Part shown: one piece after another, positions 9,433 to 52,711 of the stretch
Numbering within the stretch: the stretch's first letter is position 1
How the letters are laid out: each line of letters opens with the position of its first letter
Origin: an uncultured Gammaproteobacteria bacterium
Lineage (GTDB): Bacteria; Patescibacteriota; Patescibacteriia; UBA9934; GWF2-40-263
DNA length: 64,000 bases
Direction of reading: 5' to 3'
Assembly: GCA_964538435.1 (NCBI GenBank)
Contig: CAZIDX010000006.1
Span: forward strand, 11,923-75,922
Notes under the pieces: generated by a model
What the model saw: only the letters and a program-made list of their open reading frames with translations
The model's database searches: none
What the model was told of the DNA's origin: nothing
Translations under genes and position numbers: made by a program

Positions 9433-10188
9433 CTAGAAGAGCTCTTGGATGATGCGTTGCTGGAGCTCGATCTTCTGCTGGCTGATTGAGGAAACCTCGC
9501 TGAGGGCGTTTTGCTCGAGTTGAGTGATGAGGGCTCGAATCTGCTCGCAGAGAACGGCCTGAATAACTTTTTTTGATTTGCAGCCGCTAAGCATGACCGA
9601 CACAATACTGATTCCACCATCCCTTCTGCGCCGGAGCGTCAACTTGCAGGAAGTGCTTACACCGACACCCCAGATCAAGTCTGGAGCGTGTCGAATTCTA
9701 TGATCGTCCTCGATTTCATGACTACTCTCAACATCAACGAACAACGGTTCGATGCGGTGCGGGGACCACACGCTGCGCTGCAGATAGTCAAGAAAAGCAA
9801 AGCGGAGAGCGTTTTGAACAAAACTCCTGAGATCATCTGCAGATGGGTAGTTTGCCGTTATGTTGCGAAGGTGTTCATCCTCGTAGTGGAGATGTCGCCG
9901 AATGAGACTAAGCGGATGACTCAACTTCGGTGCAGGCGTATCTTCATCATAGAAAATACGTGTCTGGCCCTTCTTGGGAATCCTGAGAGTGTATTCCCCG
10001 ACTCCAAGTCCGGGAAGATGCCCGTTGTAAATGGCTTCAATGAGCGCATTCCACTCATCAAGATCCATGGGGTACGAGCATTCGAATCGCTGCTCAAGCT
10101 TCCCCTCCTTCATATAGCCGATCACCTTGAACCAAAATTCGAGCTGATCAACATAGAATGGGAGACCGAATTTCTCGTTAGCAGACAT
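9433..10188 (-). CDS. Hypothetical protein, paralog family member A2 (251 aa)
   Basis: See A1. The N-terminal MSANEKFGLPFYVDQLEFWF block is conserved. Confidence 0.6.
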   Translation of the reverse strand: MSANEKFGLPFYVDQLEFWFKVIGYMKEGKLEQRFECSYPMDLDEWNALIEAIYNGHLPGLGVGEYTLRIPKKGQTRIFYDEDTPAPKLSHPLSLIRRHLHYEDEHLRNITANYPSADDLRSFVQNALRFAFLDYLQRSVWSPHRIEPLFVDVESSHEIEDDHRIRHAPDLIWGVGVSTSCKLTLRRRRDGGISIVSVMLSGCKSKKVIQAVLCEQIRALITQLEQNALSEVSSISQQKIELQQRIIQELF

Positions 10189-10223
10189 GAATCACGAAAA
10201 TCCTTTATGGCGCTTGGTCGACA

Positions 10224-10240
10224 CCGGGGCCATGTCCGGG
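10224..10240 (-). promoter_or_regulatory. Motif copy CCCGGACATGGCCCCGG downstream of the A2 promoter (TTGACA-17-TAGATT)
   Basis: Read directly from the sequence. Confidence 0.5.
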
Positions 10241-10268
10241 TCGATCAATCTATCAATGACCAGTGTAA

Positions 10269-41368: not shown

Positions 41369-41743
41369 GTGGTCATGCTGACTCTTTCCGTCTTCGTCTC
41401 CAGCATGGTCTTCCTGGCTGCTGCGCATTTTCTGGGCGACTACGCGTTCCAGAGTGCGTGGATGGCTGCCAAGAAGGTTCCGTCCAACCACGTTCCAGGC
41501 AAGGATCCGGCAGGGCCTTGGGAGGTCCTGACCTACCACTGCCTGACCTACACGGCCACGTTCCTCCTGCTCCTTGAGATCCGCGGCGCGCCGTACTCGC
41601 TCTGGGCCCTCGTGTTCATCTTCGCGATGCACATGGCCTGCGACGCGCTCAAGTCGCGAGAGATTCTGATCAAGAAAATCTGGCAGGACCAAGTGGTCCA
41701 CCTTGGCACGCTCGCCATCGTCATTTTGGCGGGGTGGGTGTGA
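41369..41743 (+). CDS. Small polytopic membrane protein (DUF3307-like)
   Basis: Four hydrophobic helices. Starts the GC-rich island. Confidence 0.4.
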   Translation: MVMLTLSVFVSSMVFLAAAHFLGDYAFQSAWMAAKKVPSNHVPGKDPAGPWEVLTYHCLTYTATFLLLLEIRGAPYSLWALVFIFAMHMACDALKSREILIKKIWQDQVVHLGTLAIVILAGWV

Positions 41744-41859: not shown

Positions 41860-43140
41860 GTGCAAGAGCAGAAGTTGTTTTTTCCTGAGCAGGCACATGT
41901 ATTCCACTCGATGCCAGAGCAGTTCTGGATCATTCGACAGATGGAGGAGATCTATCGAAATCTAGTTGATCATGGATACTCGCGGGCTGATGCGCTGTAC
42001 TTTGCCTATGTGCAGACGCACAAGAATCAGTTTGAGACATCCTGCGGGGCAGGGGCTGATACGTTCCGACGCGACATGACATCGCTTCTTCGCTCTGCAA
42101 AAGACATCATCCGTGAGGTCACCAAGGATTACTACTGGCCCATGCGCGAACCGCTTCAGCTTCACAACACCATCTCGCTGTGCCTGGACCCGATCCGCAT
42201 GTTCGAGATTGCGATCGCAGGACCGACACCGAGAGCAGACCCGCTTGAGCAACGTCGCGACTTCGAGGCTCTTCGCCAGTTCGCGATCGCGCTTCAATTC
42301 TACGCGATCGAGTGCGCAGATCCTGAGCACGAGGTTGCAGAAGACCTGTTCAGGATCGAGGAACTTTCCTGGGAGCGTCTGTTCATTCGTGGTGAAGGCC
42401 TGACGCTTTGGGTCATCAACCACATGAACCCTTCAAAGGGATATCGGTCTGGGAAGATCGAGTTCTTTGACAAGAAGAAGCCGGCCACGAGACGATCGAA
42501 AAGCCTCGCGCGCAAAGGCGTCCCGCACAAGGTGCACATCATTCCGAGTCGCTTGGTGAGAATCGGGAAAAAGGAGCTCATTGTTTTTGCTGCAGAGCGC
42601 AGCAAGGACCTGTTCTCCACCTTGCTCAAACTCGAGCGAGGTCGAAAGGCTGTGGACCGGCGTGGGTGGAAGTACGTCATTGTTGGATCGCGCGGCACCA
42701 AGAAAATCAAGCTCGCAACGCGAACTGATGCCGAACTCTTCCTGGAGCACACAAGGACTTTTCTCTGGCAGGACCCGCTCTTTGCGAATCCTGACGACTC
42801 TGAAGAGGTTGGAAATCCTTACCGCGACCCAACGTACTGGGACAAAAAGATCGATGGTCGGTTCCATCATCAAAACGGGGAACGCATCATCGCTGGCGCT
42901 GCTGAGCAGATTGTGACCACGCTTCGTGACTACCTGGACGCAACAACGTGTCACGATCGCCTGAACCACACTCTGTACAAAGCAGATCAGATCTTCGACG
43001 TGATCACCCCGATCTGGTTCCCGCGCAGGCGCGGCCCTTATCAGGACAATGATCGCATTCGGATCCCCAACTACGGTATCAACTGGGAGCTGGAGAGCGT
43101 TCGACAAGAGCTCGAGAGCTTCTGGAGAACCAGGATCTAG
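41860..43140 (+). CDS. Hypothetical protein (426 aa), GC-rich island
   Basis: GTG start with RBS GAGGAGGGG. No recognised domain. Confidence 0.5.
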   Translation: MQEQKLFFPEQAHVFHSMPEQFWIIRQMEEIYRNLVDHGYSRADALYFAYVQTHKNQFETSCGAGADTFRRDMTSLLRSAKDIIREVTKDYYWPMREPLQLHNTISLCLDPIRMFEIAIAGPTPRADPLEQRRDFEALRQFAIALQFYAIECADPEHEVAEDLFRIEELSWERLFIRGEGLTLWVINHMNPSKGYRSGKIEFFDKKKPATRRSKSLARKGVPHKVHIIPSRLVRIGKKELIVFAAERSKDLFSTLLKLERGRKAVDRRGWKYVIVGSRGTKKIKLATRTDAELFLEHTRTFLWQDPLFANPDDSEEVGNPYRDPTYWDKKIDGRFHHQNGERIIAGAAEQIVTTLRDYLDATTCHDRLNHTLYKADQIFDVITPIWFPRRRGPYQDNDRIRIPNYGINWELESVRQELESFWRTRI

Positions 43141-43149
43141 CTCAACGAA

Positions 43150-43185
43150 GCTGCCTTTTGAGGCGGCTTTTCTAATTGACAGAAT
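43150..43185. repeat. Terminator-promoter module family member in + orientation (GGCGGCTTTTCTAATTGACA)
   Basis: Same GGCTTTTC(T/A)AATTGACA junction as the other copies. A further copy lies at 43676-43700. Confidence 0.4.
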
Positions 43186-43241
43186 TCGGGATGGGGAGTA
43201 AATTCAGTCCTCGCACTGTCGAGAGGAAGGAGGTAGATACC

Positions 43242-43655
43242 ATGACCGATCAGGAGGCACTTTTTCAGCTACTCAGCGAGGAGGGTCTTCTCGTTGGAGG
43301 CACCATCGTGGAGCACACCCCCAACGGACTAGTGTATGGAACGATCAGTGGTTCTGACGTGGGAGAGTCTGGGTCATTGTCCATCGAATGGAACGATGGT
43401 TCTTGCAGAGTTGCTTTGTTTCACCAACTTCATTGGTTGCTCTCGGTGATCAGTGGTGTCGTTTTCCTACAACGAGTCCTGCGGAACCCTATGGGTTGCA
43501 ACCTACCCCCCAAAGAAATGAACCTCTACACCCTGATCCCGCCCCAGCAGGAGTCCGTGTCTGAACACGAATCGATCTTCGAGACCCCGCGGCGTCGGCC
43601 ACCCCCAAGCGATGCTCTGATCAGGCTCGGACGCTGGGATCGCCGGCGTCGATGA
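43242..43655 (+). CDS. Hypothetical protein (137 aa)
   Basis: Strong RBS AGGAAGGAGG lies 7 nt upstream of ATG 43242; the longer TTG-initiated track ORF has none. Confidence 0.35.
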   Translation: MTDQEALFQLLSEEGLLVGGTIVEHTPNGLVYGTISGSDVGESGSLSIEWNDGSCRVALFHQLHWLLSVISGVVFLQRVLRNPMGCNLPPKEMNLYTLIPPQQESVSEHESIFETPRRRPPPSDALIRLGRWDRRRR

Positions 43656-43886
43656 GCTACGCAAGCTGCCCTCTAGGGTGGCTTTTTCAATTCAATTATG
43701 CTCACCCTCTCCACACCACGTCATCCTGAAGGAGTTTGAATTGACTGAAGGATCCCACACACAGCAAGACAAACCTGCAATGAGCAGCGTCGAGGTCATT
43801 GTTGGAGGGGATCCTTCGCTGCGCTCAGGATGACAGGGTGGGGTGAAGGCAATTCAAAAACCCCTGCTATCGCAGAGGTTTCTGAA

Positions 43887-43898
43887 TGGGGCGACCAA
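43887..43898. repeat. 12-bp direct repeat (TGGGGCGACCAA) identical to the 3' end of tRNA-His, 134 bp from the gene: att-like scar
   Basis: Exact copy of the tRNA 3'-terminal 12 nt. The intervening 122 bp contain several hairpins and an inverted 13-nt copy of the tRNA-His T-arm (GTTCGATTCCCGTT). Confidence 0.55.
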
Positions 43899-44020
43899 TC
43901 CCGACGATCCGGCGAAGCCGGATGTCGGGACCCCGACACCAAAAGTCGTCGGGGCGGGTGTAATTCATGTTCGATTCCCGTTTCCACTAAAAAACCCTCG
44001 CTTGCGCGAAGATTTTTTAG

Positions 44021-44096
44021 TGGGGCGACCAACGGGAATCGAACCCGTAATACCAGTACCACAAACTGGTGTGATAACCGTTTCACCATGGTCGCC
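44021..44096 (-). tRNA. tRNA-His (anticodon GTG) with encoded G-1 and CCA
   Basis: The reverse complement folds with G-1:C73, acceptor GCGACCA/UGGUCGC, D-stem GUGA/UCAC, anticodon loop UUGUGGU and T-arm ACGGG-UUCGAUU-CCCGU. ORFs 43796..44098 and 43843..44229 overlapping it are spurious. Confidence 0.85.
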
Positions 44097-44181
44097 ATGG
44101 ACGGAGGGAGGATATCAAATATTCAAAAAGAGATCAAGAGTAACAGAAACACCCCGACCTGTGCGGTCGAGGTGCCGTGTG

Positions 44182-44508
44182 TCATCTCACTCTTTTTATC
44201 CAGAACTTGATCGGGCTCTTGTAGTCTAGCCACTCGAGAGCAAGTCCTGAGACTTGTCTTTTCACCCTCCCCTGAGTTGTGTTCACCCAGATATATGGAG
44301 CGCCCTCACACCCATAATCTTTTGTCCGGCCACAACGAAAGATTGCTTCGTAGTACTTCATCCCAAAAGATTGGAATTTACCCAGATGATCAAGTAGATA
44401 TTCGAAGTCTTCCGTACCCGCCCAGTCTTCGTCATTCACCCCACCTACCTCAGGTGAGGTTGAACAAATGAGCTCGTAAACCCTATCGCCTGCGCGAATT
44501 TCCATCAT
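44182..44508 (-). CDS. Hypothetical small protein (108 aa), last gene of the low-GC operon
   Basis: Stop-start overlap with the upstream methyltransferase gene. About 40% GC. Confidence 0.45.
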   Translation of the reverse strand: MMEIRAGDRVYELICSTSPEVGGVNDEDWAGTEDFEYLLDHLGKFQSFGMKYYEAIFRCGRTKDYGCEGAPYIWVNTTQGRVKRQVSGLALEWLDYKSPIKFWIKRVR

Positions 44509-45503
44509 CCTTTCCCTTTCACACCACTGAATACGAACGTGCGTTCGATGTGTTCTGTGATGAACGTGTTTTGTGTATTCTCAAACCAACTTGCCAATGT
44601 CTTACCATCGATCACTGGACACTCGACAGGAGGCGCATCGCCATGCAGCATGAAGTGTGGTTTATACCATTTCATATACTCCTCATGTGTCGGTACATAG
44701 AAATCTGCCACCCCAATAAACCCACCGGGTTTGGCAGCCTCTTCCATTTGCTGACACAGAAGTTTTCTTCCATGAAGATTCATATGGTGGTGTGTGTAAG
44801 CCGAGAGCACAACATCAAAATTACCTATCACTTCGTCTGGTAGCTTCTCCCCATCACCAAGGTAGTAAGTCGTCTTTTCATCTGCAAGCATTTTTTTGTA
44901 CACCCCCCCGTCCTTACCAGCAAAAGAGAGCTGATACTCTTCAATCATTTCGTTTGGGACAATGAATTGACCAGCCTTTGTTACCTCAAGAACATTTGGA
45001 ACGATATCAAGCATTGCGATCTGGACCTTATCGAGAAGTCCTGCTCGATCAAATGCACGTAGCGCAAACAGGGTTGTGATTGCGCCACCGCAAGGTCCGA
45101 TATCGATAAGACTAATCTCGTCTTGCTGTTTAAGTGTTTCGATATTCTCCCACAGATAAGACTCGAGCCGATTCGACAACTCATTATTTCCTTCAGAAAC
45201 CCATCTGTCTTCAAAAAACTTCTCAGAGACATATTTCTCATTCACACCAGATGGAAACCGACGCACAGCCCCTTGCTCGAGCACACTTACGTCCATGAGT
45301 GGATGGAGGTAAAAGAGTTCTTCATCAAGATTAACAGGTGTCTCGTAAGTGAATTCACTTTGTTCGTCTCGGTGCGGATTTTTACCCTCGGGAAAGAATC
45401 TTGGATCAATGAGGTGCAGATATTCTTTTTGTTTATCAGAAAAATTTTCAGGCTTCACCAGAAGCGTGTCAAAATCAACAAGTTGTTCTAGATGTTTGCT
45501 CAT
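44505..45503 (-). CDS. Class I SAM-dependent methyltransferase
   Basis: Motif I IDIGPCGGAIT and post-I acidic LDIVP. 332 aa. Confidence 0.7.
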   Translation of the reverse strand: MSKHLEQLVDFDTLLVKPENFSDKQKEYLHLIDPRFFPEGKNPHRDEQSEFTYETPVNLDEELFYLHPLMDVSVLEQGAVRRFPSGVNEKYVSEKFFEDRWVSEGNNELSNRLESYLWENIETLKQQDEISLIDIGPCGGAITTLFALRAFDRAGLLDKVQIAMLDIVPNVLEVTKAGQFIVPNEMIEEYQLSFAGKDGGVYKKMLADEKTTYYLGDGEKLPDEVIGNFDVVLSAYTHHHMNLHGRKLLCQQMEEAAKPGGFIGVADFYVPTHEEYMKWYKPHFMLHGDAPPVECPVIDGKTLASWFENTQNTFITEHIERTFVFSGVKGKG

Positions 45504-46434
45504 ATTCTTTGATAGTTATTCCAGTAGCCTTTTCAAAATTCTTGTCTGTGATATTGCCACCTGAGACAATGCAAGCGCGGATCTTTTTGTCCTTGCCATC
45601 AATCTTTGCTGCTGCGTATGCGATTGCTCCGGCGCCCTCGACCGCCTCTCCAGTCTTTTCGTAGATCTCTCGCATTGCGTCTTTGATCTGATCCTCGGTT
45701 GGCGTAATGAAACGATCAACGTTTTCTGAGATGATCTGGTAAGTCACAGTGGACGGACTAAGGTTCACAGCAAGTTTTTCTGCTTGCGACTTGTTTGGCC
45801 TTACCTCTGTGACACCACCCTTCTCTACCGCCGTCACCATGGCGTGCATATTCTCAGGCTGCACTCCCACGATCTCGATCTCTGGCTTCATCGCTTTAAG
45901 TGCAACAGAGATTCCTGAGATGAGCCCGCCGCCACCAACAGGAACATAGACGATATCTAGGTTTTTGATTTGGTCGAACAGCTCGAGACCAATTGTTCCT
46001 TGGCCAGCGATCACATCCTCGTCGTTGTACGGGTGAACAAATGGAATACTGTTCTCACGAGCGTGCTGCACAGCCATCTGCTCAGTAGAGCCAAACACAT
46101 CTGTTCCGTAGAGCACCTCATCAACCAAGCCCTCCATCTTTTCTTCTGCATCTGCTGGTGGGTTTTGAATCATCACGCAAATCGTGTGTATGCCAAGTTT
46201 CTTTCCAATGTGACCCAAAGCAAACCCATGCGTTCCGAGCGCTGACGTCATGACTTTCTTTGATGGATTATTGGTCATTGCGCTTGCTGCCCCACGAATC
46301 TTAAAACCTTTCACAACAGGCTGGTGGTTCTCGAGTTTTAGAAAAAGACCAGGATCAATCTCTTTGACTGGTGTGAGCTCAACAAGGTCTTTGATTCTTT
46401 TTTCCGAATCTTTTATGTCTTGAAGTGTAACCAT
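45475..46434 (-). CDS. PLP-dependent fold-type II enzyme, threonine/serine dehydratase-like (EutB-like)
   Basis: PLP-Lys motif KLENHQPVVKGFKIRGA and glycine-rich PVGGGGLISG. Confidence 0.75.
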   Translation of the reverse strand: MVTLQDIKDSEKRIKDLVELTPVKEIDPGLFLKLENHQPVVKGFKIRGAASAMTNNPSKKVMTSALGTHGFALGHIGKKLGIHTICVMIQNPPADAEEKMEGLVDEVLYGTDVFGSTEQMAVQHARENSIPFVHPYNDEDVIAGQGTIGLELFDQIKNLDIVYVPVGGGGLISGISVALKAMKPEIEIVGVQPENMHAMVTAVEKGGVTEVRPNKSQAEKLAVNLSPSTVTYQIISENVDRFITPTEDQIKDAMREIYEKTGEAVEGAGAIAYAAAKIDGKDKKIRACIVSGGNITDKNFEKATGITIKEYEQTSRTTC

Positions 46435-46436
46435 AA

Positions 46437-47348
46437 CTAGTTTGAAATAATTGTCTCAGCGAGCGCAGCGTCTGTGGCTGGTGGTCCGTGGTGCTTGAAA
46501 ACGATCACACCCTCAGCACCCACAAGAGATGGATCAGAGATCGTTTGACCAAGCTCAACAATGCTTCCAAGGTCATACCCTTCACCTTTGGCTAGCTTGA
46601 TCTCATCATACATTGGAATGTTTTGCTCAGAATCCACGATCACTTGAGCGTTTCCGACCGTGCCCTCTGGAACCTCTTGGTCTTTTTTCATGGCGCCCAC
46701 ACCAATAATCAAAGCGTGCTCTGACACATCTTTGGCATCAAACACAGGATTGCTTGATGTGGTTGCTGTGACAATTATATCTGCACCGAGCACGGCTTCT
46801 TTTGCGCTTTTTGCAGCTGTGATCTTTATCTCACCAGCAAGCTCGCTTACTGACGCTTCGAGATGCTCTCTTGTTGGGCTATGCATCCGCACCTCTTTTA
46901 TCTCTGGAAAAAGTTTTGTAAGTATCCGAGCATGAGCCTTTCCTTGAACACCACTTCCAAAGATTGCCAAGATGTTCTTTTTCCGAGCGAGGTGCTTCAC
47001 ACCAACAGCAGAAGAGAGGGAAGTGCGAATCGCTGCAAAGTGCCGCGCTTCAATGATTGAGTTTAAGATTCCTGTCTTGCTATCAAACACCAAGATGTAC
47101 GGGTGAACAGTTGGTAGACCTTTTTCACGATTGCGCCTGTAGTCAGTAGCTTGCTTTGAGATAAAGATCGGGCTTTCTTGCAAGTACGCTGGGAACGAAT
47201 AAAACATCCCGTCATTTACTGACATCGAAGTTGTCTCAGGGATTTGCGTGCGCCCAGAAGAGTAGTCTTGATAGCTTTTTTCGATTGCTGCAAAAGCCTT
47301 TTCAAGATCAATGGACTCTTTCACTTGTTTTTCTGAAATGATGTTCAT
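46437..47348 (-). CDS. Ornithine cyclodeaminase / mu-crystallin family protein
   Basis: 303 aa. Rossmann motif LAIFGSGVQGKAHA. Typical OCD N-terminal region. Confidence 0.75.
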   Translation of the reverse strand: MNIISEKQVKESIDLEKAFAAIEKSYQDYSSGRTQIPETTSMSVNDGMFYSFPAYLQESPIFISKQATDYRRNREKGLPTVHPYILVFDSKTGILNSIIEARHFAAIRTSLSSAVGVKHLARKKNILAIFGSGVQGKAHARILTKLFPEIKEVRMHSPTREHLEASVSELAGEIKITAAKSAKEAVLGADIIVTATTSSNPVFDAKDVSEHALIIGVGAMKKDQEVPEGTVGNAQVIVDSEQNIPMYDEIKLAKGEGYDLGSIVELGQTISDPSLVGAEGVIVFKHHGPPATDAALAETIISN

Positions 47349-51667: not shown

Positions 51668-51743
51668 TGGTAGCCCGAGCAGGACTCGAACCTGCAACCT
51701 TGAGTTTAGAACACTCCTGCTCTTCCAGTTGAGCTATCGGGCC
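51668..51743 (-). tRNA. tRNA-Arg (anticodon TCT), CCA encoded
   Basis: Cloverleaf with D-stem GCUC/GAGC, anticodon loop GUUCUAA and T-arm GCAGG-UUCGAGU-CCUGC. There is a G27:A43 mismatch. Confidence 0.8.
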
Positions 51744-51784: not shown

Positions 51785-52711
51785 TCAATCGTCTTTGCGT
51801 TTTTTGCCGTGGTACTTTTTGTGCACTTCTTTCATTTTGTTATTTGTAATGTGGGTGTAGATTTGGGTGGTTGTGATGGATGCGTGACCAAGCAAGGATT
51901 GTACTGAGCGGATGTCTGCGCCATTTAAGAGAAGATCTGTAGCAAAGGTGTGGCGCAGAGTGTGTGGTGTTATATGTTTTGTGATGCCGGATGCTTTTGA
52001 GTAGCGCTCGACTAGGCGCTGGATTGATCGTGGAGTGAGTGGGCCTGCGTTGTCTCGACCACCTTTGGCGCGGTCGTGTGAGACAAACAGATACTCTGAT
52101 AGGTCCCGGCGCTTGCCTAAGTATTCTGTTAGAGAATCGCGCGCTGTTGAAGAGAGAAATACAATGCGAGGCTTGTCGCCTTTTCCTCTAATAGTGAATT
52201 CTTCTCGTTTGAGATTGATTTGCTCGATCTTGAGGCTTGAAATCTCAGACACGCGCATACCGGTTGAGAAGAGGAGTTCGAGTACTGCTGTGTCACGAAG
52301 AGCCACCAAGCCGCTACTGATTCGCTTTGGGGCCTTGAGTAAGCGATCTAGTTCTTCGATTTCGAGAAACTCGACTGTACGAATTTCTTGTTTTGCGAGT
52401 TCGATCTTTTCTGGGGCCAGTGAGACGATATCTTGCTTTGAGAGGTACTTTAAAAATGATCGCAAGGCAATGAGGTGGTAGTTCTGTGTGCTCTTTTTTA
52501 GCTGCTCTCCATCTCGACCAACAACTGAGCGGTTAAGCCAGAGCCTGTACTTTCGCACCATCTCTCCGGTTATTTTTGCTGGCTCTGGGTTTTTTGCGTA
52601 CTCCTGAAATCTTCGCAAATAAAAATCGTAGTTTCGGATTGTTCGCGAAGAGCGACCGCGCTCGACTTCGAGGTATTCTAGAAACTGTGTAATGAGTTTT
52701 GAGATGGTCAT
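51785..52711 (-). CDS. Tyrosine recombinase XerC/XerD family
   Basis: C-terminal catalytic block HTLRHTFATDLLLNGADIRSVQSLLGHASITTTQIYTH and an N-terminal core-binding domain. Lies 42 bp from the 5' end of tRNA-Arg. Confidence 0.85.
   Translation of the reverse strand: MTISKLITQFLEYLEVERGRSSRTIRNYDFYLRRFQEYAKNPEPAKITGEMVRKYRLWLNRSVVGRDGEQLKKSTQNYHLIALRSFLKYLSKQDIVSLAPEKIELAKQEIRTVEFLEIEELDRLLKAPKRISSGLVALRDTAVLELLFSTGMRVSEISSLKIEQINLKREEFTIRGKGDKPRIVFLSSTARDSLTEYLGKRRDLSEYLFVSHDRAKGGRDNAGPLTPRSIQRLVERYSKASGITKHITPHTLRHTFATDLLLNGADIRSVQSLLGHASITTTQIYTHITNNKMKEVHKKYHGKKRKDD

Follow-up and report, generated by a model that had tools for sequence, protein, structure and literature searches.

Three groups of described systems resemble the locus considered here, a tRNA-His(GTG) gene and the ~165-bp module that follows it in a 64-kb window (the whole stretch of DNA analysed, contig CAZIDX010000006.1, positions 11,923 to 75,922) from an uncultured member of the Patescibacteriota. 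The 3' end of this tRNA gene is partly duplicated, and non-randomly so; the repeat is real, and it consists of one direct and one inverted copy within the module. The most likely origin, held at little better than even confidence, is a fold-back (template-switch) duplication at the palindrome of the tRNA terminator that has since been inherited vertically.

The first group comprises the displaced tRNA 3' fragments (attL/attR) associated with islands and prophages that use tyrosine integrases (Islander, PMC4383910). As in those cases, a direct repeat of the tRNA 3' end lies downstream of an intact tRNA gene and is followed by a terminator like that of the original end; in relatives of the window, the repeat begins in the T-loop. 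However, only 122 bp separate the two copies here, integrase and cargo are missing, and there is an extra inverted copy. Furthermore, the module is orthologous in a sister genome, the copy tracks the acceptor of the resident tRNA, and the neighbouring "island" is syntenic core DNA. The second group is that of quasipalindrome or template-switch mutations (PMC7202029, PMC8604942, PMC13100816, PMC7954356), with which the locus shares an inverted copy at the outer edge of a pre-existing terminator hairpin, arms that reach into the tRNA and match it, and, most clearly in relatives, a direct re-copy after the inverted piece, the junction there being at the self-complementary T-stem. Most published examples are one-off changes that involve from a few to tens of nucleotides, whereas the product seen here has persisted across genera, has gained internal hairpins, and may have re-formed several times in one relative (L082). 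Finally, there are small RNAs linked to tRNAs that derive from 3' external transcribed spacers (3'ETS), such as 3'ETS-leuZ, as well as tRNA-like 3' ends and minihelices. Like these, the module is structured, directly follows the 3' end of a tRNA gene, and has its own terminator and an end made of the acceptor strand and CCA; unlike them, it lacks a complete acceptor stem in the window and matches no tRNA, tmRNA, or Rfam model.

Anatomy of the tRNA-His cassette

The 12-mer TGGGGCGACCAA is found at exactly two sites in the window, even when one mismatch is permitted: at 43887-43898 and at 44021-44032, the latter being the 3' end of the minus-strand tRNA-His gene. The direct repeat reported in the original prediction is thus exact, with a spacing of 134 bp, a gap of 122 bp, and no third copy. 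In the sense of the tRNA, it consists of T65, the 3' strand of the acceptor (TGGTCGC), the discriminator C, and CCA. The inverted match to the T-arm also exists, although its length, previously given as 13 nt, is 14 nt (GTTCGATTCCCGTT, 43969-43982). Both repeats extend beyond their exact cores. The direct one covers 43 nt at 77% identity (43856-43898 versus 43990-44032) and takes in a terminator hairpin together with the tRNA end, while the inverted one covers 23 nt at 83% (43960-43982 versus 44031-44053) and corresponds to the variable loop and T-arm. When the 400-nt 3' flank was shuffled in 20000 rounds, a direct match of at least 12 nt arose 17 times and an inverted match of at least 14 nt 3 times, and the two never arose together. 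No comparable copies lie near the remaining three tRNA genes of the window.

The tRNA lies on the minus strand, and the module is accordingly described from the tRNA 3' end towards lower coordinates, in the order tRNA-His, terminator hairpin (T2), inverted copy (INV), two GC-rich hairpins, direct copy (DIR), and second terminator (T1). The gene itself (44021-44096, minus strand; gene body 44021-44095) is recognized by ARAGORN and by Rfam RF00005 at 62.7 bits; G-1 is encoded at 44096 and CCA at 44021-44023. Upstream of it, an element that can be read from the sequence as a -35 TTGATC (44132-44137), a 17-nt spacer, and a -10 TATCCT (44109-44114) spans 44109-44137 on the minus strand. A plain consensus promoter scan did not flag this TTGATC-N17-TATCCT element; it probably acts as a promoter, and the stretch is 79% identical upstream of the tRNA-His gene of the sister genome L086, as compared with about 51% identity at four-fold degenerate sites.

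On the other side of the tRNA, the predicted hairpin T2 (43984-44023; inverted repeat I3, arms 89% complementary) is a palindrome with 18-bp arms (43984-44001 and 44006-44023) and a GCAA/TTGC loop, and its stem takes in the CCA of the tRNA (CCAC...GTGG). T2 is homologous to the sole terminator of the relative L083 and to the terminators of L082. These arms are flanked by those of a second inverted repeat, I2 (43960-43982 and 44031-44053), so that the tRNA 3' end, T2, and INV form one long quasi-palindrome. INV itself (43960-43986, minus strand), which contains the 23-nt, 83% arm of I2 and the 14-nt exact core, begins with the complement of CCA (TGG), lacks the 7-nt acceptor strand by deletion, and continues with the T-arm and variable loop. 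Next come two hairpins with a common stem, CCCGAC/GTCGGG. Hairpin 1 (43931-43954) is predicted to fold as CCCCGAC-loop-GTCGGGG; hairpin 2 (43899-43930; TCCCGAC...GTCGGGA, with an inner CCGG stem) directly adjoins the 12-mer. DIR (43887-43898, minus strand) matches the last 12 nt of tRNA-His at 12/12 positions and is the far end of the ~165-bp module that begins at the tRNA 3' end. Right after it, T1 (43856-43886, minus strand) is predicted to fold as AAACCUCUGC-GAUA-GCAGGGGUUUUU in the tRNA sense, and T1 plus DIR repeat, over 43 nt at 77% identity, the tRNA 3' end and T2. The earlier description of the spacer as rich in hairpins holds well: a 173-nt stretch folds at -93 kcal/mol, with z = -8.5.

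Several other identities for the spacer were considered and rejected. A check for a decayed partial tRNA had been proposed, but neither ARAGORN, which reports the true tRNA only, nor the Rfam covariance models match a tRNA or tmRNA there, and the partial copies exist at the level of sequence only. In a cmscan search of 43500-44400 against Rfam, with E values up to 10, nothing credible was found in 43856-43990, neither a T-box nor another family. A T-box or leader, in which UGGG would be complementary to CCCA, is likewise rejected: there is no Rfam T-box match, and the downstream genes are convergent. A complete, convergent tRNA pseudogene with the 12-mer as its 5' acceptor strand is rejected too, given that the 12-mer matches the 3' end at 12/12 positions including T65 and CCA and that the 19-nt copies of relatives extend into the T-loop. 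The hairpins do not belong to a dispersed family of repetitive extragenic palindromic (REP) elements either; CCCGAC..GTCGGG recurs at just two other sites of the window, and the corresponding CCCGCC..GGCGGG is confined to the module within L086. Nor was there any sign of dispersal of the kind seen with REP elements or miniature inverted-repeat transposable elements (MITEs): the unit of the window type is present only in the window and in L086, beside tRNA-His, with no target-site duplication.

The module in related genomes

The PolA protein of the window places it in the Patescibacteria, within the Candidatus Uhrbacteria/Parcubacteria group, at no more than 63% identity to any species representative. 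Closer genomes were reached through homologs of a neighbouring gene, o426. The closest is L086 (GCA_900089805.1), whose PolA and Xer proteins are 86.8% and 93.5% identical to those of the window; PolA of L083 is 79% identical, PolA of L087 about 80% over 207 aa, and Xer of L089 80%. Because four-fold degenerate sites of the window and L086 are only 43-57% identical, DNA without constraint should barely align between the two.

In L086, the gene order is polA, TrmB, DUF3307, o426, the o159 homolog, the tRNA-His module, the o108 homolog, AT5, o245, and an AsnC regulator, with tRNA-Arg(TCT) and Xer further on. Its module contains tRNA-His, a terminator, INV (TGGGCGAGAGGGAATCGAACACGAACTAC), two hairpins, a 12-mer (TTAGCCGCCCCA), and a second terminator. 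The tRNA is 87% identical to that of the window and INV 79%; in the hairpins, the stems are retained while the loops and lengths are altered. Hairpin 1 of L086 has the stem CCCCGCC/GGCGGGG with a different loop, a compensatory change from A-T to C-G, and hairpin 2, TCCCGCC-AGA-GGCGGGA, carries the same compensatory change. The 12-mer of L086 matches that genome's own tRNA acceptor and differs from the 12-mer of the window at exactly two positions, which are those at which the tRNA acceptors differ (GGTCGC versus AGCCGC). The tRNA and the 12-mer are 126 bp apart in L086 and 134 bp apart in the window, with the same arrangement of INV, hairpins, and 12-mer. The module thus predates the split between the window and L086. 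Relatives having the identical arrangement with no size polymorphism had been named in advance as the finding that would speak against integration, and L086 comes close to this.

More distant Uhrbacteria have analogues of the module. Behind the tRNA terminator, L082 (a 1.2-kb metagenome contig), L089/90/91, L001, L003, and L087 all have the tRNA 3' end in inverted copy, and the position of this copy is the same in six relatives, L082, L089, L001, L003, and L087 among them. After INV, this variant continues with GGTTCGAT, a ~95-nt conserved core, TTCCCGTT with the acceptor strand and CCA, and then another terminator, except that L087 lacks DIR and the part with the second terminator and L003 is cut by the end of its contig. 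The direct copy matches the tRNA at 19/19 nt in L082 and in L089 and at 16/19 in L001, and is absent from L087; a second terminator follows DIR in L086, L082, and L089, as it does in the window. Again, DIR follows the acceptor variant, with GGTCGC in the window and L082 and AGCCGC in L086 and L089, and the T-stem of INV in L087 bears the same CCGGG/CCCGG variant as the tRNA of L087. L082 holds three generations of direct copies, together with an 86-nt tandem repeat at 93%, and its distal unit, unit B, has a bare arrangement in which an INV ending in CCCGT is joined directly to the acceptor strand, CCA, and terminator. This junction, CCCGT/GGGTTCGAT, is clear in L082 unit B, L003, L089, and L001, whereas in the window 61 nt of hairpins intervene.

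The ~95-nt core was not found in the window. It is homologous among the loci (nhmmer E from 1e-9 to 1e-22), occurs only beside tRNA-His in the 1.5 Mb of fetched DNA that was searched (upstream of it in L005), and usually sits within the T-loop of a partial direct tRNA copy. Copies were located at 3958-4062 in L089, 710-812 in L082, 3328-3458 in L001, 3425-3524 in L087, 5832-5925 in L005, and 1-62 in L003. The core is made up of TTCGATGCTGGAG.GAG.GAG, a variable hairpin, CCGA.CGA.CGACAGCAAT, and a second hairpin, and appears to form a helix with tandem G.A pairs. As a long hairpin, it has compensatory changes in 11 of 30 pairs, which none of 500 shuffles reaches, and the copies from L082 and L087 have no match in Rfam.

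The module is not universal. In L083/84/85, tRNA-His has a single T2-like terminator that adjoins the terminator of o426, and o159, INV, and DIR are all absent; since L083 lacks o159 as well as the module, this looks like secondary loss. Overall, the copies are missing at L083, L005, L072, L007, L016, and L017 and present in the more distant L001, L003, and L089. The tRNA-His alleles themselves do not match the PolA tree. The allele of the window is identical to that of L082, yet differs from that of the sister L086 at 10 of 75 positions, in the acceptor and anticodon stems, and L086, L083, and L001 have one identical allele in common. This pattern suggests either exchange of alleles or unusually fast compensatory change.

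Origin of the copies

In the fold-back duplication that we favour, the nascent strand would have snapped back on the terminator hairpin and copied CCA, acceptor, and T-arm in reverse complement, generating INV and extending the palindrome. It would then have switched back to the original template, priming at the self-complementary T-stem, after which recopying of the acceptor strand, CCA, and terminator would have yielded DIR and T1. One or more short-range template switches may have been involved, and the hairpins between INV and DIR would be later additions or replacements. Such a duplication accounts for INV, because the inverted copy abuts the terminator hairpin, a feature that an integration scar leaves unexplained; indeed, the inverted copy is contiguous with a pre-existing hairpin and extends its arms (I3 flanked by I2). 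Unit B of L082 is the bare product expected from such an event, and the 86-nt, 93% tandem repeat in L082 shows that duplication here is recurrent. Template switching between the arms of inverted repeats is known to homogenise and expand them (PMC8604942, PMC13100816, PMC7202029, PMC7954356). Homogenisation of this kind would let INV follow the tRNA arm, which is the one under selection, and repeated events would renew DIR; the copies may have been kept matched by arm homogenisation together with renewed duplication, as the three generations in L082 suggest, or by selection on a transcript.

Several considerations weigh against this scenario. The mechanism is deduced from anatomy, with no intermediate observed, and the hairpins that separate INV from DIR, 61 nt in all, are more than a single switch explains. 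The 12-nt boundary of DIR is common to the window and L086, and the two copies differ exactly at the two positions of the acceptor variants; because 12 nt is very short for gene conversion, selection on function fits better than neutral homogenisation, and the fixed boundary and the two co-varying positions fit a selected RNA at least as well. The retention of 130-190 nt of noncoding DNA in streamlined genomes hints at a function, as does the sequence-conserved, covarying core in relatives. In addition, T1 and T2 agree outside the 12-mer at 21/31 positions, which could be a generic resemblance between terminators. An ancient integrase event might also be the ultimate source of DIR, although this is doubtful.

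In the next most likely reading, held with low confidence, the module would be transcribed, through T2 by read-through or from a start of its own, and would end at T1 to give a selected RNA of ~130 nt. The 3' end of this putative RNA, a stable hairpin followed by UUGGUCGC-C-CCA, might mimic the acceptor end of tRNA-His, and its 5' part would be antisense to the T-arm. It could conceivably serve in the processing or surveillance of tRNA-His, or, towards an enzyme active on tRNA 3' ends, play the part of a mimic or decoy; its identity to the tRNA would then be kept by selection. A function of this sort and an old fold-back origin may both hold, as the two are not mutually exclusive. INV is conserved at 79%, as against about 51% at four-fold sites, both hairpin stems have compensatory changes between the window and L086, DIR covaries with the resident acceptor in two independent contrasts, and in every locus a terminator of its own follows DIR. 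Moreover, the unit of L086 folds into a cloverleaf-like four-way junction that is closed by pairing of INV with DIR, and the ~95-nt core of relatives, confined to the vicinity of tRNA-His, has the compensatory pairs described above. However, the covariation is thin, given that the module of the window type is represented by two sequences, those of the window and L086, and that the same change in both hairpins may reflect nothing but their being repeats. In addition, owing to the 7-nt deletion in INV, the closing stem of L086 cannot form in the window, the module is missing from L083 and DIR from L087, no Rfam family matches, and the strong hairpin of T2 should halt most read-through. It is rather improbable, though the sequences would allow it, that the unit of INV, hairpins, and DIR and its counterpart with the ~95-nt core constitute an undescribed, selected small RNA that is linked to tRNA-His, ends in a faithful copy of acceptor and CCA, coevolves with the tRNA, and acts as an acceptor-end mimic or decoy for a 3'-end enzyme, for which the product of o426 is a candidate.

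A less likely alternative is that the module is an integrase attachment scar, in which an incoming element with a tyrosine integrase supplied the present tRNA-His end and displaced the original one, now the 12-mer (attR). In the form in which an ancient element was almost entirely deleted, leaving ~120 bp, this is unlikely; in the form in which the GC-rich segment at 41.2-43.7 kb is the former element and the repeat the boundary of a recent island, it is very improbable and already contradicted by synteny in L086. A tRNA 3' end that recurs in direct orientation, with a terminator of its own behind it, does resemble a displaced fragment (PMC4383910), and such a direct copy is present, at 12/12 nt here and 19/19 nt in relatives. 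A tyrosine recombinase gene is present in the window, and L083 could represent the state without the module. Furthermore, the direct copy of relatives begins in the T-loop (19 nt, ATTCCCGTT...CCA), which is reportedly a classic crossover sublocation. On the other hand, neither form of the scar explains the inverted copy directly behind the terminator, and DIR tracks later changes in the acceptor of the resident tRNA, unlike a passive displaced fragment. The only recombinase found when the earlier call for an integrase was followed up, o308 (51785-52711), is a Xer-type tyrosine recombinase (NCBIfam XerA/C/D) that is 93% conserved in L086 (93.5%), lies 7.7 kb away on the 5' side of tRNA-His, and is linked to tRNA-Arg(TCT) (51668-51743) in every relative examined. 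Pfam, PHROGs, and NCBIfam searches detected no integrase among the open reading frames (ORFs) flanking the tRNA from 40.4 to 51.6 kb, and neither integrase nor phage protein appeared among the further ORFs scanned, out to 30.7 kb and 63.1 kb. No viral contig scanned carries the site: searches for the tRNA end and for the INV motif gave 0 matches, and a scan of viral contigs with the core motif for a phage attP gave 10 chance matches without tRNA-His or extended homology. An island at tRNA-Arg(TCT) was also considered and rejected; the 7.5-kb low-GC segment 3' of that gene carries no repeat of the tRNA-Arg end, and most of it is also present in L086.

For the recent island in particular, the original prediction had read the repeat as the footprint of integrase-mediated integration and had placed the former element on the GC-rich side. 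The repeats, however, enclose 122 bp of hairpins rather than kilobases of island DNA, searches found neither an integrase nor a phage gene within about 7 kb, and the module is orthologous in L086. The 41.2-43.7-kb segment, which consists of DUF3307, o426, and o159, is not enclosed by the repeat pair but starts past the distal repeat, and no third copy of the 12-mer bounds it within the 64 kb. Its genes are syntenic in relatives: o426 in L086, L083, L087, L088, L089, and L001, o159 in L086 and L088, and DUF3307 in L002, L086, L087, L088, and L089. They are equally GC-rich in L086, with values for o426 and o159 of 0.551 and 0.555 there versus 0.54-0.55 in the window, where GC at third codon positions (GC3) is 0.61-0.66; AT5, o245, and the regulator, in turn, are low in GC in both genomes. 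The contrast in composition must consequently be old and gene specific, because both the raised and the low GC are held in common with L086, and it is modest within a window whose GC ranges from 0.41 to 0.59. Alignment with an empty tRNA-His site of a relative had also been proposed as a check; in L086, however, neither the module nor its flanking genes are missing, and the GC contrast is that of the window. The GC-rich genes next to the repeat are thus ordinary syntenic genes and not a former element.

Lastly, a chance likeness between the tRNA and hairpin-rich intergenic DNA, for which one may note that an A-run, GC-stem, and T-run are common to terminators, making part of the 43-nt similarity generic, has a negligible probability and is refuted by the 20000 flank shuffles, none of which gave both matches, and by the recurrence of the same architecture in at least six related loci.

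Plasticity, neighbouring genes, and significance

The locus is prone to rearrangement, and to this extent its earlier designation as a recombination hotspot stands: the cassette is inverted in L086, tRNA-His changes orientation, and the cargo is variable. In L086, the whole cassette from promoter to distal terminator (9941-10255, corresponding to 43856-44140 of the window) has the opposite orientation with respect to the o159 and o108 homologs on either side. In both genomes, it is bounded by oppositely oriented terminator tails, GGnTTTCTG/CAGAAACACC, which form a short inverted pair at 43875-43884 and 44145-44154 of the window. Among more distant relatives, the orientation of both tRNA-His and tRNA-Arg(TCT) flips, and the DNA between the 3' end of tRNA-Arg(TCT) and tRNA-His varies from ~0.05 to 7.6 kb, containing an MFS (major facilitator superfamily) transporter, ORFs of unknown function, or the operon of the window.

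Two differences from L086 lie close to the cassette. At 44505-47348, 0.4 kb from the 5' side of tRNA-His, the window has three genes, for a methyltransferase, a threonine-dehydratase-like enzyme dependent on pyridoxal phosphate (PLP), and an ornithine cyclodeaminase family protein; L086 lacks all three, and its o108 homolog lies directly next to a class-V aminotransferase. At 43696-43849, between the terminator of o159 and T1, there is a 154-nt palindromic, MITE-like element with arms of ~25 nt that are 80% complementary and a core of GTCATCCTGA...GGATCC. On either side of the element stands a copy of an 8-nt direct repeat, CAATTCAA (43688-43695 and 43850-43857). L086 has no such element at the same spot; a like motif follows the o426 homolog in L092.

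The protein encoded by o426 (41860-43140) belongs to a family found only in Patescibacteria, with 130 representatives among 1.8 billion proteins (30-130 homologs). Its AlphaFold2 model (mean confidence, pLDDT, of 92) has as its best match the small alarmone synthetases RelP/RelQ, although weakly (Foldseek E ~0.1), and it looks like a very divergent enzyme of the RelA/SpoT fold. We take the invariant RRKRLLSTLLKLER...DRRGWKYVV of the family to fit the RelA/SpoT motifs RxKxxxSxxxKxxR and DxxGxR. In addition, two distant members match Pfam RelA_SpoT below its cutoff (E = 5e-4 and 0.02). Toxic members of the RelA/SpoT superfamily pyrophosphorylate the CCA ends of tRNAs (10.1101/2021.04.30.441581, PMC11559606). 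The o426 protein of the window is 49-53% identical to its homologs in L086 and L083, a pair with 69% mutual identity, and it falls outside the L086/L083 clade in 196 of 200 neighbour-joining bootstraps, even though PolA pairs the window with L086. In this stretch (o426 and o159, 41860-43655), the divergence indicates either accelerated evolution of o426 or its replacement by a divergent homolog. The adjacent DUF3307 membrane protein (41369-41743) matches PHROG 2470, a "moron/auxiliary" membrane protein, at E = 3e-19 and has a GC3 of 0.82; despite these features, it is syntenic in the five relatives listed above.

Taken together, these findings indicate that a duplicated tRNA 3' end is not by itself the scar of an integration event, and that island callers which rely on repeats of tRNA fragments would mis-call loci of this type. 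Partial tRNA copies that stay matched to a functional gene across lineages provide a compact natural case for the homogenisation of palindrome arms in very small genomes. Should selection instead be responsible for the match, a new RNA linked to tRNA-His in the Patescibacteria would be indicated.

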